From: a phage
DNA: 64,000 nt
Direction: 5' to 3' (one strand)
Assembly: GCA_020279385.1 (NCBI GenBank)
Contig: GCA_020279385.1_4762.2
Numbering within the stretch: position 1 is the first letter of the stretch; each line of letters starts with the position of its first letter. Made by a program: the position numbers and the translations under genes. Shown piece by piece: positions 14,243 through 29,918 of the stretch. The notes under the pieces are model-generated. The model searched no databases. It was not told where the DNA came from and worked only from the letters and a program-made list of their open reading frames with translations.

Positions 14243-14505
14243 TGAAAATCAGTATTATTCGATTATGGTCGGCAACCCATGAAAACTACGCAGTAGCAGA
14301 AGATCTTTACGGGTTGCAATATCTCTATGATGAATCGAAAGCGTCATGGTTTCCTGTACAAGAAAATAGCGATATATCAAGACCTGTTACTGTATTCGGT
14401 CCAGACGATATTTTTATTAACATTAGCGAGACAGTAGCAAAACTGCGTAAGAAAGCAAAGAAAAAGGGGAAGTGGGATGAAAGAATATTTGAAACTGTTA
14501 CGTGA
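14242..14505 (+). CDS. Hypothetical protein (87 aa)
   Basis: Coupled via TAATG to upstream mini-ORF; track ORF 14215..14505 probably starts at this internal ATG. Confidence 0.4.
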   Translation: MKISIIRLWSATHENYAVAEDLYGLQYLYDESKASWFPVQENSDISRPVTVFGPDDIFINISETVAKLRKKAKKKGKWDERIFETVT

Positions 14506-15712
14506 TGTTATTGATAATGGCTGGCCTCGTGAAGACCGCACGGGGGTAGGTACGCTCTCTAAATTCGGCGCAGAGATGCGAATTGATTTAAGCAAGGGTT
14601 TCCCCTTACTGACCACTAAAAAGATGGCTACAGCCTCTGTAATTGGCGAATTGCTATGGTTTATGGAGGGATCACTTGACCGCCGTCGCTTACAGGAAAT
14701 TACACGCGGCAAGTTTGACGAGGAAGCCTTTGATATTTGGCGCGGCAACTGTCTTGATATGAAAGAAAAGAATCCCTTGCGATTCAATGGTTATAATGTC
14801 GGCAATATGTATGGTATGGCGTGGCGACGCAAACCGATTCATCCACACGGTGAAATCAAAATTAAGCGAGTTAAGAGCAAATATGCACATACATTTAAGC
14901 ACCCGTGGGTAGAAGACTTTACGCCAACCAATGAAACAGAAGACCGTTTATGTGCTATCTGGCGTGGTATGCGTTATGAAGAGTTTGATTCTGAATATAA
15001 TCAATTCTTAGTAGCCGATCACTGGAAGACTCAATCTAATTTTGTTAATGATGCATATTGCTTGTGGGGATTCCAGGAATGGGTAGATGATGGTTATTTC
15101 GGTTATCTGCTTGATAGTGATTATCTGGGTGGGGATATTTTAGCACCAGATACCACGATCTTTGCTAGTATGGACGTAGACACATCAAGCACTAAAGACG
15201 ATGAAGAATATGTCTATCGCCCGAAGATTTGGGAAGACCAGTTACAAAAAGTTATTGACATGATCAAGAATGATCCGTATAGTCGTCGTATTATCATTGA
15301 TTCATGGAACGTACAGGAAACGCATAATGCTGTGTTAGGTGTATGTCATCCGATGGTACAGTTTTATGTTTCCAACGACAACAAATTGAGTTGTTTATTT
15401 TTCATGCGTTCGAATGATCTCTTTTTAGGGAATCCGTTCAACGTAGCGAGCTATGCACTGTTAACGCATATCATCGCGAAGATTTGCGGGTTAGAAGTTG
15501 GCGAACTGGTTTATCAGTGTGGGGATTGCCACATTTACAAAAACCATTTTGATCAAGTTATGGAACAGTTAAGCCGTGTTCCGTTTGATAAACCAACAAT
15601 TGAGTTGCCGGAATTTAAGTCTTTAGATGAGGTATTGACAAAGACTCCGAAAGACTTTAAAATTCACAACTATCAAAGCCATCCAGCAATCACCGCTCAA
15701 ATGGCAGTATAA
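14477..15712 (+). CDS. td: Thymidylate synthase with ~130-aa internal insertion
   Basis: TS blocks DRTGVGT, GFPLLTTKK, RRIIIDSWNV, CHPMVQFYV, LFLGNPFNVASYALLTHI, continuous frame; 411 aa versus ~286 in T4. Confidence 0.9.
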   Translation: MKEYLKLLRDVIDNGWPREDRTGVGTLSKFGAEMRIDLSKGFPLLTTKKMATASVIGELLWFMEGSLDRRRLQEITRGKFDEEAFDIWRGNCLDMKEKNPLRFNGYNVGNMYGMAWRRKPIHPHGEIKIKRVKSKYAHTFKHPWVEDFTPTNETEDRLCAIWRGMRYEEFDSEYNQFLVADHWKTQSNFVNDAYCLWGFQEWVDDGYFGYLLDSDYLGGDILAPDTTIFASMDVDTSSTKDDEEYVYRPKIWEDQLQKVIDMIKNDPYSRRIIIDSWNVQETHNAVLGVCHPMVQFYVSNDNKLSCLFFMRSNDLFLGNPFNVASYALLTHIIAKICGLEVGELVYQCGDCHIYKNHFDQVMEQLSRVPFDKPTIELPEFKSLDEVLTKTPKDFKIHNYQSHPAITAQMAV

Positions 15713-15781: not shown

Positions 15782-18025
15782 ATGATTAAAAATGTTGTTA
15801 AGTCTTCCGGTCTGACTGTTCCGTTTGAAAAAGAAAAAGTAATGAAAATTCTGGAAGCGGCAGCCGAAGGTCATAACGTTGATCCATATGAATTGTTTGA
15901 TATGGTTGAACCACTTCTGACAGAAGGTATGTCTACCAATGATATCCAGAAAGTATTGATTAAGGTCGCCGCAGATAACATTACTGTAGAAACTCCTGAT
16001 TATCAATATGTAGCAAGTAACCTTGCAATGTTCGCGCTTCGTAAATCAGTATACGGTCAATTCCAACCTATTGATTTTTATAGCCATATTGAGCGTAATA
16101 TTGCAACCGGAAAATATGATCGCGAAATTCTACAAAAGTATTCCCGTGAAGAAGTGGAATATCTGGAGAAATTCATCGACCATAAACTTGATTTTAAAAT
16201 GACCTATGCTGGTGCGATGCAGTTAAAAGAGAAATATCTTGTTCAGGATCGCAGCACTAAGAAAATCATCGAAACACCGCAATTTGCGTATATGCTGATC
16301 GGTATGTGCTTACATCAAGAAGAGACAGAAAATCGACTTGAACATGTGATTGATTTTTATAATGCTGTTGCGAATAAGCAAATCTCTCTGCCTACTCCGA
16401 TTATGGCAGGTGTGCGTACCCCAACACGCCAATTTAGTTCGTGTGTGGTGATTGAAAGTGATGACTCATTGCAGGGTATTAATGAAACCGCAAATGCAAT
16501 CATTAAGTATATTAGCAAGCGTGCTGGTATCGGTATCAACGCTGGCATGATTCGCGCGGAAGGATCTAAGATCGGGCATGGTGAAGTTCGTCATACTGGC
16601 GTTATCCCATTCTGGAAACATTTTCAGACTGCCGTTAAGTCATGCTCACAAGGCGGTATTCGTGGAGGGGCAGCTACTCTCTATTACCCAATGTGGCATT
16701 TAGAGTTTGAAAGTCTGATTGTGTTAAAGAACAATAAGGGGGTGGAAGATAACCGCATTCGTCATCTTGATTACGGCGTACAGATTAATAACCTGATGGT
16801 AGAGCGATTCCTTAAACGGGATTACATTACTCTGTTTAGTCCAGATGTTGCAGGTGGCTTGTTGTGGGATCTGTACTTCCGAGATGAGGAAGGTTTCCGC
16901 CAGCTTTACGAAAAACTGGAAAAAGATCCGAGTGTTCGTAAAACTCGTGTTAAAGCCGAAGACCTGTTTTTAGCGGTGGCAATTGAACGTTTTAACACTG
17001 GTCGAATCTACCCAACATTCACAGACAACATGAACAATCACGGGGCGTTTATTCGTAATGTAGCACCAATTAAACAATCTAACCTGTGTTGTGAAATTGC
17101 TCTGCCTACTAAACCGATGGGGCGTGATGATTCAGAGATCAGCCTATGTACTTTGGCAGCATATGTTTTAGGTAATTTCGATATCGAAAACATGGAAGAA
17201 GTAGAACGCATTGCTATGGTTATGGTGCGTGCACTTGACAACCTGTTAGATTATCAGGATTATCCTGTAGAACAAGCTCTGACAGCCAAAAAACGTCGCT
17301 CTCTGGGTGTTGGTGTTACTAACTTTGCGTCATATCTAGCGGATAATTTCTTCACATATGAAGACGCTAACGAGTTTACGCATAAAACGTTTGAACGCTT
17401 GCAATATGCTCTGATTAAGGCTAGTGTGCAACTGGCTAAAGAGAAGGGTGCTTGCGAACTGATGCACGAAACACGTTATGGACGCGGTGAACTGCCTATC
17501 GACTGGTACAAAAAGACAGTAGATGAACTGGTTGATCCTGTGTATGAGATGGATTGGGAAGAACTGCGCGAAGACCTGAAAAAATATGGCATTCGTAATA
17601 GTACGCTTTCGGCTCTGATGCCTTGTGAGTCGTCTTCTCAGGTATCTAACAGCACAAACGGTATTGAACCGCCTCGCGGGATTGTATCGGTTAAAGGATC
17701 GAAAGAAGGGCAATTTAATCAGGTTATTCCGAACGTAGAGAATAATGCTGATGTTATTGACCTGCTTTGGACACTGATCAAGAAAGGTAACAAGCCCTAT
17801 CTGACACTGGCAGCGATCATGCAGAAGTTTGTAGATCAGGCGATTAGTTCCAATACATCCTATGATCCAAGCACTTATAAGACTGGTAAAGTCGATATTG
17901 CTGATGTGTTAGATGATATGTTGTTCGCTCAACATTACGGTCTGAAAACCCTGTATTATGCGAACGTTCGCGACGGTGCAGATGGTACGGAAGACGCTAG
18001 CGAGTGCTCATCTTGCAAGCTGTAA
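15782..18025 (+). CDS. nrdA: Ribonucleotide reductase large subunit (class Ia)
   Basis: 747 aa; N-terminal ATP-cone-like region; catalytic SNLCCEIALPT; synteny with T4 nrdA. Confidence 0.95.
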   Translation: MIKNVVKSSGLTVPFEKEKVMKILEAAAEGHNVDPYELFDMVEPLLTEGMSTNDIQKVLIKVAADNITVETPDYQYVASNLAMFALRKSVYGQFQPIDFYSHIERNIATGKYDREILQKYSREEVEYLEKFIDHKLDFKMTYAGAMQLKEKYLVQDRSTKKIIETPQFAYMLIGMCLHQEETENRLEHVIDFYNAVANKQISLPTPIMAGVRTPTRQFSSCVVIESDDSLQGINETANAIIKYISKRAGIGINAGMIRAEGSKIGHGEVRHTGVIPFWKHFQTAVKSCSQGGIRGGAATLYYPMWHLEFESLIVLKNNKGVEDNRIRHLDYGVQINNLMVERFLKRDYITLFSPDVAGGLLWDLYFRDEEGFRQLYEKLEKDPSVRKTRVKAEDLFLAVAIERFNTGRIYPTFTDNMNNHGAFIRNVAPIKQSNLCCEIALPTKPMGRDDSEISLCTLAAYVLGNFDIENMEEVERIAMVMVRALDNLLDYQDYPVEQALTAKKRRSLGVGVTNFASYLADNFFTYEDANEFTHKTFERLQYALIKASVQLAKEKGACELMHETRYGRGELPIDWYKKTVDELVDPVYEMDWEELREDLKKYGIRNSTLSALMPCESSSQVSNSTNGIEPPRGIVSVKGSKEGQFNQVIPNVENNADVIDLLWTLIKKGNKPYLTLAAIMQKFVDQAISSNTSYDPSTYKTGKVDIADVLDDMLFAQHYGLKTLYYANVRDGADGTEDASECSSCKL

Positions 18026-18033
18026 AATAAGTG

Positions 18034-18062
18034 TTGACGCGGGGAGAAATCCCCGCTATAAT
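18034..18062 (+). promoter_or_regulatory. PeSL-type early promoter
   Basis: TTGACG - GCGGGGAGAAATCCCCGC hairpin as 17-nt spacer - TATAAT. Confidence 0.55.
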
Positions 18063-18093
18063 ACAACCATCAAAAACAAGTGAGGATTTTATT

Positions 18094-18261
18094 ATGACCA
18101 AATTAAAATGTGTTGCTGTAGATTTTGAGCTAGCTGATAGCTTTGTTGTCGGTGATGTATATGAGGCTCGATATGATGGGACTTGCTACTACGTTGAGGA
18201 TGAATACGGCGTAGAATGGGCTATTCTTCCCGATGATAAATGTTTTGAGGTTGTAGGATAA
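18094..18261 (+). CDS. Hypothetical small protein (55 aa)
   Basis: ATG after GTGAGG RBS; track ORF start at 18031 lies inside the promoter. Confidence 0.45.
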   Translation: MTKLKCVAVDFELADSFVVGDVYEARYDGTCYYVEDEYGVEWAILPDDKCFEVVG

Positions 18262-18434
18262 TGGCTACTGTATGGTTATTGATTGCAATAAGCAATTCAA
18301 TGTATAATTACGGAAATATGTCAAGCATTGAGTTTGCAACAAAGCAGGATTGCGTTAAAGCTCGCGAGATTATCCGTGAAGACAATAAACGCTTTATGAA
18401 TCTATATTGCGTTGAAAAACAAAAGGTGAACTAA
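18261..18434 (+). CDS. Hypothetical small protein (57 aa), paralogue A
   Basis: MATVWLLIAISNS...; start overlaps upstream stop (TAATG); paralogue of next ORF. Confidence 0.45.
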   Translation: MATVWLLIAISNSMYNYGNMSSIEFATKQDCVKAREIIREDNKRFMNLYCVEKQKVN

Positions 18435-18601
18435 TGGCTACATTATGGTTATTGCTTTCCGTTAGCGTAGGATCATATAATAAAGGAACTGTTACCAGCG
18501 TGGAGTTTTCATCACATCAAAGCTGTTTTGAAGCCGTGCAGGAATTGCAACAGGATAACGAAATAAACAGAAATACTAAGTTCTTTTGTGTTAAAAAGTG
18601 A
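18434..18601 (+). CDS. Hypothetical small protein (55 aa), paralogue B
   Basis: MATLWLLLSVSVG...; TAATG coupling; shares MATxWLL, SxEF, FxCV with previous ORF. Confidence 0.45.
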   Translation: MATLWLLLSVSVGSYNKGTVTSVEFSSHQSCFEAVQELQQDNEINRNTKFFCVKK

Positions 18602-18616
18602 TAGTGAGGTGAATTA

Positions 18617-19804
18617 ATGAGCGTATTTAACCGCGAACATGTTGATATTATGAACGAACCGATGTTTCTGGGTAGTGGGTTGGGTATCGCTCGCTATGAT
18701 ATTCAGCGTCATCAAGTATTTGAAGAACTGATCGAAAAGCAATTGTCATTTTTCTGGCGTCCCGAAGAGATTTCACTTGCAACCGACCGCATACAATATC
18801 TTAATATGGGTGACGTTGAAAAGCGTTTCTTTACCGAAAACTTGAAGTATCAGACATTACTTGATTCTATTCAAGGTCGCGCACCGTCCGCAGCATTTGG
18901 TCCAATTGTATCTGATCCAACTCTCGATACATGGTTGCAAACATGGACATTCAGCGAAACGATTCATAGCCGAAGCTATACACACATTATGCGTAACTGT
19001 TTCATTGATCCGGCTAGTGAGTTCGACCAGATCATCGATAACCCTGCTATCATGAAGCGAGCGGAATCTATCGGGAAATATTATGATGATGTTCTTTATT
19101 GGATTCGTAAGTATGAGAATGCAAAAGAAGATCTCCGCTATTGGGAAGAAGAAGTTCTCCACCACTATTGGGAAGAACGAGACGATCAGACAGAATTAGA
19201 TGATGCAAGAAGATTTTTTGAAGATACAAAACGAGATCTGATGGCTTCGATTTATCTGTGTGCACACTGCGTCAATGCACTGGAAGCAATCCGTTTTTAT
19301 GTGTCCTTTGCATGTACTTTCAGCTTTGCCGAACGTGGTTTACTGGAAGGTAACGCGAAGATCATGAAATTTATTGCGCGTGATGAACAACTTCATTTAA
19401 AAGGCACACAATACATTATTCGTCAATGGCAAACGGGGGGTGATGGTGATGAGTGGAAACAGATTGCGGAAGAACTTGAAGGCGAAGCAACGAAAATCTT
19501 TCTGGATGTTGTCGAGCAAGAAAAAGAATGGGTAGACCACCTATTCGCAATGGGGGCAATTCCTAACCTGTCACCGGAAATTCTGAAAACCTATGTAGAA
19601 TACCTGGCAGATTCCCGTATGCGTGCTGTCGGACTGAAAAGCCCGTTTAGTGTTCGTCGTCATCCGTTACCGTGGATGCGTAAGTGGTTAAACTCTGACG
19701 AAGTTCAAAACGCGGCGCAAGAAGTAGAGATTATGTATCTGGTGTCTCAGGTTAATACCGATTTAACAGACGATGACTACAACCGATTCGGTAAATATCT
19801 ATGA
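18617..19804 (+). CDS. nrdB: Ribonucleotide reductase small subunit
   Basis: 395 aa, position after nrdA; continuous frame. Confidence 0.9.
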   Translation: MSVFNREHVDIMNEPMFLGSGLGIARYDIQRHQVFEELIEKQLSFFWRPEEISLATDRIQYLNMGDVEKRFFTENLKYQTLLDSIQGRAPSAAFGPIVSDPTLDTWLQTWTFSETIHSRSYTHIMRNCFIDPASEFDQIIDNPAIMKRAESIGKYYDDVLYWIRKYENAKEDLRYWEEEVLHHYWEERDDQTELDDARRFFEDTKRDLMASIYLCAHCVNALEAIRFYVSFACTFSFAERGLLEGNAKIMKFIARDEQLHLKGTQYIIRQWQTGGDGDEWKQIAEELEGEATKIFLDVVEQEKEWVDHLFAMGAIPNLSPEILKTYVEYLADSRMRAVGLKSPFSVRRHPLPWMRKWLNSDEVQNAAQEVEIMYLVSQVNTDLTDDDYNRFGKYL

Positions 19805-20277
19805 TATATTTTGTCGATTTAGATTTTACGATCACAGATCCAACACATCGACTAGCAAAGATGCCAACCGAAAATCTTGATAAAGTCGAGTCATGGATCG
19901 AATATAACAAGGCATGTGGGGGAGATTCCCCCATTTACGATGTAATTCGTGTTATTAATGCTCTTTCCGACAACGGGCATTTGATTTACATCCTCACCGG
20001 ACGAAGTTCACATGCTTACATGGAAACAATTGATTGGTTAATTTCTAACGGGGTGTGTTTTGATAAAATCTTTATGAGAGGCCGTACCGATTCCCGTAAA
20101 GATTATCACATCAAATTAGAGGTAATTAAATCCTTTGATAAAGATGAAGTTGTCGGAGTCTTTGAGGATAACCCAGAAGTGATTAAAGTTTTGCGTGAAA
20201 ATGGTTATCGTGTCTTTGACGTAGGAAATCACAAAGATAAGACGCGAGCGGATATTGCAAATCACGGTCATGATTAA
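19801..20277 (+). CDS. HAD-superfamily phosphatase-like protein (putative nucleotidase)
   Basis: N-terminal VDLDFTIT (DxDxT-like), LTGRS, FEDNP. Confidence 0.5.
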   Translation: MIYFVDLDFTITDPTHRLAKMPTENLDKVESWIEYNKACGGDSPIYDVIRVINALSDNGHLIYILTGRSSHAYMETIDWLISNGVCFDKIFMRGRTDSRKDYHIKLEVIKSFDKDEVVGVFEDNPEVIKVLRENGYRVFDVGNHKDKTRADIANHGHD

Positions 20278-20286
20278 TGTTTGTTC

Positions 20287-20314
20287 AAAGTCGCCCATAG
20301 TGGCGACTTTTTTG
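20287..20314 (+). terminator. Rho-independent terminator
   Basis: AGTCGCCCATAGTGGCGACT hairpin followed by TTTTTTG. Confidence 0.7.
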
Positions 20315-20324
20315 TTATTGGGTG

Positions 20325-20665: not shown

Positions 20666-20884
20666 ATGAAATTTACTTGCACCGACTCTATCAGCAAACA
20701 CTTTGTAGTAGGAGAAGTATACGAATCTACTACCATTCGCCAGCGTGACCTGATGGGTCGCCTTTACAATCAGCCAGTATTCATTATTGGTGAAGAATTG
20801 TTCTACATTGAAAACCGTCCGTGGGTTGCTTTCAATAAACGAGGACGCAAGGTAGCAAAATTCGAACTTGTCATTAAAAAGTAG
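20666..20884 (+). CDS. Hypothetical protein (72 aa), PeSL-flanked cassette
   Basis: ORF bracketed by two near-identical PeSL repeats. Confidence 0.5.
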   Translation: MKFTCTDSISKHFVVGEVYESTTIRQRDLMGRLYNQPVFIIGEELFYIENRPWVAFNKRGRKVAKFELVIKK

Positions 20885-28750: not shown

Positions 28751-28779
28751 TTGACAGGGGATCACCGATCCCCTATACT
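28751..28779 (+). promoter_or_regulatory. PeSL-type early promoter
   Basis: TTGACA - GGGGATCACCGATCCCC palindrome as 17-nt spacer - TATACT; then ...CGAAACGA...AGGAGAATCAA leader. Confidence 0.55.
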
Positions 28780-29889: not shown

Positions 29890-29918
29890 TTGACAGGGGA
29901 TCGGTGATCCCCTATAAT
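29890..29918 (+). promoter_or_regulatory. PeSL-type early promoter
   Basis: TTGACA - GGGGATCGGTGATCCCC - TATAAT. Confidence 0.55.

Follow-up and report, generated by a model that had tools for sequence, protein, structure and literature searches.

The question raised by this locus is what three very small open reading frames are doing between the genes for the two subunits of a phage ribonucleotide reductase: whether they are genes at all, how they are expressed, and whether their position says anything about their function. The window, meaning the whole stretch of DNA that was analysed, is 64,000 nucleotides of phage sequence (GCA_020279385.1, contig GCA_020279385.1_4762.2). The reading preferred here, with a probability of roughly 70%, is that the locus is an early gene cassette of an RB49-like phage, headed by a promoter-early stem-loop (PeSL) and placed between nrdA and nrdB. 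The three mini-genes are real, already annotated small genes in an ordinary variable spot, and do not constitute a new system.

The window comes from a Krischvirus, an RB49-like T4-type coliphage. Over the 801 bases around the locus, identity is 100% to Escherichia phage vB_EcoM_Skers and 93-99% to 58 further records, all of them Krischvirus. The gene for the large subunit of the class Ia reductase, nrdA (15782-18025, + strand), is a 747-aa ORF annotated as nrdA in both RB49 and Skers; nrdB, for the small subunit (18617-19804, + strand), has a GAGGTG Shine-Dalgarno sequence of its own. In RB49 (GenBank AY343333), ORF1, ORF2 and ORF3 of the window are RB49ORF233c, RB49ORF232c and RB49ORF231c, hypothetical proteins between nrdA and nrdB, and Skers has an identical gene layout. 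These are the same genes in the same place, with 93-100% amino-acid identity and only allelic variation. They belong to PHROG families phrog_16302 and phrog_5579. GenBank gives no function for RB49ORF231c-233c, and no literature on them was found.

The three ORFs, of 55, 57 and 55 aa, are arranged as the first-pass annotation had described, with one-base overlaps that read TAATG at both junctions. ORF1 occupies 18094-18261, ORF2 18261-18434 and ORF3 18434-18601, all on the + strand, with a Shine-Dalgarno motif ahead of each (GAGG for ORF1). The annotation had begun the first frame at 18031, which proves to be a GTG upstream extension lying inside the promoter; the start of ORF1 is the ATG at 18094. 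Conservation of the frames in relatives had been proposed as a check, and the frames are indeed conserved. Across 12-13 Krischvirus genomes dN/dS was 0.154 for ORF1, 0.053 for ORF2 and 0.162 for ORF3 (0.012 for the 3' 900 nt of nrdA), and variable sites in all three were enriched at third codon positions. Each ORF also matches its PHROG family over its full length. On these grounds all three are judged to encode proteins that are maintained by purifying selection. None of them has a significant match in Pfam, NCBIfam or the PDB by sequence search.

The promoter that had been placed at 18034 is upheld by near-consensus hexamers and a stem-loop in the spacer. The element (18034-18062, + strand) consists of a -35 hexamer TTGACG (18034-18039), a stem-loop GCGGGGA-GAAA-TCCCCGC (18039-18056) and a -10 hexamer TATAAT (18057-18062). 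The hexamers, 17 nt apart, agree with the sigma-70 consensus at 11 of 12 positions. The spacer forms a 7-bp stem with a GAAA loop; the fold of the promoter core is -15.1 kcal/mol, and the interval 18020-18095 has a fold z-score of -4.1. The pattern TTGAC-N18-TATAAT occurs six times in the window against 0.09 expected, and a G/C hairpin lies in the spacer of six promoter-like sites on the + strand. The same PeSL is labelled a promoter in the GEC-3S record and a terminator in the Makalu_001 record; its stem-loop has no U run behind it and was not picked up by a terminator scan. Transcription would be expected to start near 18069.

PeSLs were described as a class in RB49 and phi1 (Arbiol et al. 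2010, PMC2839356; Comeau et al. 2014, PMC4122927). Entire cassettes of other PeSLs had promoter activity in lacZ reporters and one stem-loop had terminator activity; the main text of that study does not mention the PeSL at 18034 (PMC2839356). The window element resembles the published ones in several respects. Sigma-70 hexamers at the usual spacing with a G/C stem-loop between them make up the commonest PeSL subclass. Like its counterparts, the element is intergenic, following an upstream stop codon (that of nrdA, at 18023-18025) and preceding a Shine-Dalgarno sequence (GAGG, 18083-18086) and the start of an ORFan, ORF1. It is also associated with indels, and a methyltransferase cassette between two copies of the PeSL in phage Delraymugoa, described below, fits the mini-circle shuffling model. 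It differs in its setting, a conserved block of nucleotide-metabolism genes and not a large hyperplastic region, and in that it would also serve a core gene, nrdB. The PeSL at this junction is invariant across six Krischvirus, and its 29-nt core is identical in a lineage (L026) whose NrdA is only 84% identical over its N-terminal part.

Five tightly packed cistrons follow the PeSL – ORF1, ORF2, ORF3, nrdB and a gene for a HAD/PNKP-type phosphatase – joined by 1-nt or 4-nt overlaps or, between the ORF3 stop and the nrdB start, a 15-nt gap. The phosphatase gene (19801-20277, + strand; Pfam HAD_PNKP, E=2.9e-13), whose start overlaps the nrdB stop (ATGA), would be the last cistron of the operon. 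It is followed by a terminator-like hairpin and T run (20287-20320, + strand), with a 9-bp stem AAAGTCGCC...GGCGACTTT and then TTTGTTATTG, the likely end of the transcript started at the PeSL. In the proposed sequence of events, host RNA polymerase would start at the PeSL early in infection and produce a single mRNA of ~2.25 kb that carries all five cistrons and ends at this hairpin, while the PeSL stem-loop may lower read-through from nrdA. RB49 has no motA orthologue and no middle-promoter consensus (PMC1524935). RB49-type phages lack MotA-dependent middle promoters, and therefore the PeSL appears to be the nearest promoter serving nrdB; nrdB in these phages probably depends on it. No transcript, ribosome-profiling or proteomic data were found for any Krischvirus, so promoter use, read-through and translation at the locus are inferred. 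For the products of ORF1-3 the likeliest role is that of early accessory proteins which the phage can do without, transcribed together with nrdB and acting by binding to some host or phage protein. The family of ORF2 and ORF3 includes natural two-domain fusions, and so these two may work as a pair.

Placement inside the reductase operon had been singled out as notable in its own right. Comparison with relatives does not support this: the junction is a known landing site and its contents vary. In T-even phages genes are known to land at the nrdA/nrdB junction, mobE being the T4 example (PMC2790892, PMC2988022). Among the Krischvirus, nrdA and ORF1 are separated by ~900 nt of inserted DNA in four genomes (Delraymugoa, Aragogtheria, LF73P4 and KMB43); where annotated, the insert is a cytosine methyltransferase gene. 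In Delraymugoa (L002 1626-2590) the gene, for a C5-cytosine DNA methyltransferase, sits between two ~40-nt PeSL copies that differ at one base; going by the sequence, a cassette between duplicated PeSLs is exactly what the PeSL shuffling model predicts. Other insertions lie on the far side of the mini-genes. A NUMOD3-type endonuclease gene separates ORF3 from nrdB in phiS, and the alignments of SSG23, SFHK24 and PTE-Eco09 diverge at the same point. An HNH_3/AP2 endonuclease gene is found between ORF3 and nrdB in G5211, with G2494 diverging at the same point, and JSE too has an endonuclease gene ahead of nrdB.

The mini-genes themselves come and go. JSE has kept ORF1, with ORF2 and ORF3 precisely deleted, and AV108 and FL15 are without ORF2/ORF3, their alignments ending at ORF1 at the same breakpoint as in JSE. 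G37-3 has a single chimeric ORF2/3 copy and counts among the phages without ORF2. Conservation at the junction in related phages, which had been suggested as a check, is therefore divided: the frames are under purifying selection where present, but ORF2 and ORF3 are missing from JSE, AV108 and FL15. The locus illustrates cleanly how a PeSL can serve as a landing pad between two paired genes of core metabolism.

T4 mobE and other free-standing homing endonucleases share with the mini-genes the insertion site and the one-base stop/start overlap (PMC2790892, PMC2988022), and both depend on the local promoter and terminator arrangement. The mini-proteins differ from the mobE/seg endonucleases in having no nuclease motif or domain and in being far too small. 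An identity of ORF1-3 as free-standing homing endonucleases was rejected: there is no Pfam match above threshold, and HNH/GIY-YIG-type domains occur only in the extra genes of the relatives. The mini-genes are most likely passengers, the cargo of a variable site, and neither endonucleases nor parts of the reductase.

ORF2 and ORF3 had been called paralogues with conserved SxEF and FxCV motifs. They are clearly homologous (40% identity, E=1e-16) and SxEF is present in both; FxCV holds for ORF3 (FFCV), while ORF2 reads LYCV. Both match the phrog_5579 profile over positions 1-52 of 52 (E=6.8e-24 for ORF2 and 1.2e-24 for ORF3). A recent local tandem duplication as their origin is not supported, since the family is single-copy outside Krischvirus and the identity between the two proteins (42%) is no higher than their identity to homologues in unrelated phages (43-51%).

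When 1.84 billion representative proteins were searched with a profile, 357 clusters of this family came up at E<=1e-3, nearly all of 45-80 aa. Its members are found in Autographiviridae, T1-like Drexlerviridae, an Erwinia jumbo phage, Vibrio phages and temperate-like contigs. Homologues found by tblastn were in a T7-like Enterobacter phage, the T1-like phages Motto and Henu7, an Erwinia jumbo phage and Vibrio phages; with two metagenomic subfamily members as queries, tblastn matched only Krischvirus and one Enterobacter phage. There were no T4-group matches by tblastn that would make the T4 genes at this junction homologues. An IMG/VR single-protein scan returned only two close relatives, and a scan of GTDB genomes and IMG/VR with a degenerate family motif gave no match. 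Two clear family members are unannotated in their GenBank records: one in Enterobacter phage SDFMU_EhYP (L004 2501-2671) and one in Escherichia phage Henu7 (L006 2001-2156).

Cysteines C31 and C52 (ORF3 numbering) are invariant in 51 of 51 diverse members, and W5, L7, G18 and F25 nearly so. There are only two cysteines per chain, 21 residues apart, and in the two-domain fusions P0085 and P0117 each half has kept both. An AlphaFold2 model of ORF3, from a 28-sequence alignment, has a pLDDT of 92.4 and a beta-beta-alpha-beta arrangement, with strands at 5-12, 17-25 and 48-54 and helices at 28-39 and 42-47. The fold matches were generic. The DUF1482 small prophage proteins are similar in size and predicted fold, one BFVD entry of that name giving a TM of 0.68 at 27% identity; membership of DUF1482 was rejected, as none of the 51 family members matches the Pfam model even at E<=1. 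From the model, ORF2 and ORF3 are most likely soluble cytoplasmic proteins with a beta-beta-alpha-beta fold.

The alternative that survives best, though unlikely, is that ORF2 and ORF3 serve the reductase or nucleotide metabolism as accessory factors. In bacteria the ferredoxin YfaE and the flavodoxin NrdI maintain the NrdB cofactor. By analogy, the four cysteines of an ORF2/ORF3 dimer could form a redox or metal centre that keeps the NrdB cofactor; a partnership with the HAD phosphatase would be another form of the same idea. The two genes do lie in the same putative operon as nrdB and the phosphatase gene, their two cysteines are invariant, and the diverged L026 lineage retains at this junction the identical 29-nt PeSL and one family gene before nrdB (51% identical to ORF3), with no ORF1. 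On the other side, JSE, AV108 and FL15 retain nrdA and nrdB without ORF2/ORF3. The complete Henu7 genome has a family member and, by tblastn, neither NrdA nor NrdB. The family shows no Pfam or NCBIfam similarity to YfaE, NrdI, NrdH or thioredoxin families; identity with any of these was rejected, the cysteines forming neither a CxxC motif nor a set of four in the chain.

Gene context outside Krischvirus bears on the same alternative from both sides. In T1-like phages a phosphatase gene (L005 1471-2150; L006 1471-2156) directly precedes and overlaps the family gene, and the window phosphatase is homologous to gp30 of Henu7 (39% identity, E=1e-33). The HAD phosphatase and the ORF2/3-family gene may be a conserved pairing, one seen in only two lineages. 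In a T7-like contig the family gene overlaps a helicase gene and is upstream of a DNA polymerase gene; this location has been counted in favour of a nucleotide-metabolism role, and equally as an unrelated context that speaks against a link to the reductase. Elsewhere the family is found without nucleotide-metabolism genes, after a Cro-like gene or near lysis or tail genes. The association of the family with nucleotide-metabolism genes appears weak. The conservation in L026 and the strict invariance of the cysteines leave room for such a link.

The invariant cysteines hint at chemistry rather than plain binding. A more specific proposal, that the family is a cysteine-pair mini-protein dimer whose four cysteines serve as a redox or metal centre for phage nucleotide-metabolism enzymes, is a long shot. 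On this proposal the dimer would be a heterodimer in Krischvirus and one two-domain chain in some metagenomic members, and it would act in maintenance of the NrdB cofactor or in partnership with the HAD/PNKP-type phosphatase. If true, the proposal would explain why two diverged T4-type lineages have retained the family next to nrdB, and T1-like phages next to the homologous phosphatase. What interest remains in the locus would be residual, in the invariant cysteine pair and the seemingly weak association with nucleotide-metabolism genes. Its importance is modest: two unstudied hypothetical proteins can be assigned to a wide-ranging family of small phage proteins, one whose fold is predicted with confidence and whose two cysteines are invariant. 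A screen of early phage proteins could reasonably include this family, and nothing indicates a new kind of system.

The chain of TAATG overlaps raises a different alternative, that the ORFs act mainly in cis, as a translated leader that sets nrdB expression by translational coupling, with products of no importance. The short distance from the ORF3 stop to the nrdB start would suit such a leader, as would the single mini-gene of L026, which stops 7 nt ahead of nrdB, and T4 mobE at this junction is likewise coupled to nrdA (PMC2988022). A leader of this kind is nonetheless quite improbable: the amino-acid sequences are under purifying selection (dN/dS 0.05-0.16), the ORF2/3 family is kept as protein across unrelated phages in other contexts, the Shine-Dalgarno sequence of nrdB is strong, and in relatives an endonuclease gene precedes nrdB instead. 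Early accessory proteins remain the preferred reading of the three products.

The N-termini of ORF2 and ORF3 had been described as hydrophobic, with signal-peptide and transmembrane prediction as the proposed check, and very probably the proteins are not exported or inserted into the membrane by this segment with the two cysteines forming a periplasmic disulfide. The segment is followed by small residues (S-x-G or S-x-S), some distant members start with MK, and small proteins stabilised by a disulfide typically show an invariant pair of cysteines like the one here, all of which would suit export. However, the strictly apolar run is just 5-7 residues, residues 1-5 include no Lys or Arg (and so no basic n-region), and the Kyte-Doolittle 19-residue maximum is 0.61 for ORF2 and 0.81 for ORF3, against a usual membrane threshold near 1.6; neither a Sec signal peptide nor a transmembrane segment is indicated. 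W5 and L7 are nearly invariant, the alternation of S and V is strand-like, and in the AlphaFold2 model residues 5-12 are a core strand of the sheet with pLDDT of about 90. In the two-domain fusions the second copy of the segment is internal, and in P0085 it is weakly hydrophobic. According to the model, the hydrophobic N-terminus is the first strand of a small sheet, and a signal peptide or membrane helix is unlikely.

That the ORFs are not genes but frames that happen to be open in an intergenic spacer, as their shortness and the interruption of ORF1 in several isolates might suggest, is scarcely credible given the low dN/dS with third-position variation, the full-length PHROG matches, the homologues in many phage lineages, the confident fold predictions and the Shine-Dalgarno motif at each start, and for ORF2 and ORF3 it is already contradicted.

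ORF1 is of a different kind from its neighbours. Its homologues are confined to Krischvirus, its product is acidic (net charge -9), and the model, built on a shallow alignment, is an SH3-like barrel of five strands (pLDDT 89.7), so that it is best described as a genus-specific acidic ORFan of predicted SH3-like, all-beta fold. The only hint from the Pfam, NCBIfam and PDB searches is DUF7244, under the family cut-off at E=0.0023. A nonsense codon breaks the frame in G37-3, as does a 1-nt insertion in kaaroe; the GEC-3S copy contains a duplication of 21 nt, and several other isolates have ORF1 in fragments. By predicted fold it can be compared with SH3-like small phage proteins such as Bas11 Gp54 (PDB 9axb), which triggers CapRel(SJ46) (PMC11578894). 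A 72-aa ORF elsewhere in the window (20666-20884; phrog_14957) has the motif FVVG[DE]VYE in common with ORF1; this does not establish the two as paralogues, with just 13 residues aligning and a pairwise E of 5e-4.

Several further features of the window and its relatives were observed. Five more PeSLs of the same subclass, with a G/C hairpin in the spacer, lie on the + strand at 28751, 29890, 33150, 33394 and 35526, those at 29890 and 35526 having identical 29-nt cores; the cluster at 28-36 kb is probably a hyperplastic region. In L026 (1753-5883; ENA metagenome contig k119_183409) a gene for a NUMOD-type homing endonuclease divides nrdA into two ORFs, an arrangement also described for Aeromonas phage Aeh1. 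The head-tail module of Henu7 includes gp53 (L031 34427-34798; 123 aa), which bears the label 'putative ribonucleoside-triphosphate reductase'; this looks like a misannotation, as the tblastn searches with NrdA and NrdB find nothing in that genome. NrdB has 395 aa in the window and 386 aa in the RB49 annotation, and relative to L026 the window protein has an additional acidic segment of ~20 residues around residues 170-200. The thymidylate synthase ORF (14477-15712) is 411 aa, and 412 aa in L026. Compared with E. coli ThyA (about 264 aa) and T4 Td (about 286 aa), the window ORF seems to carry a large insertion.
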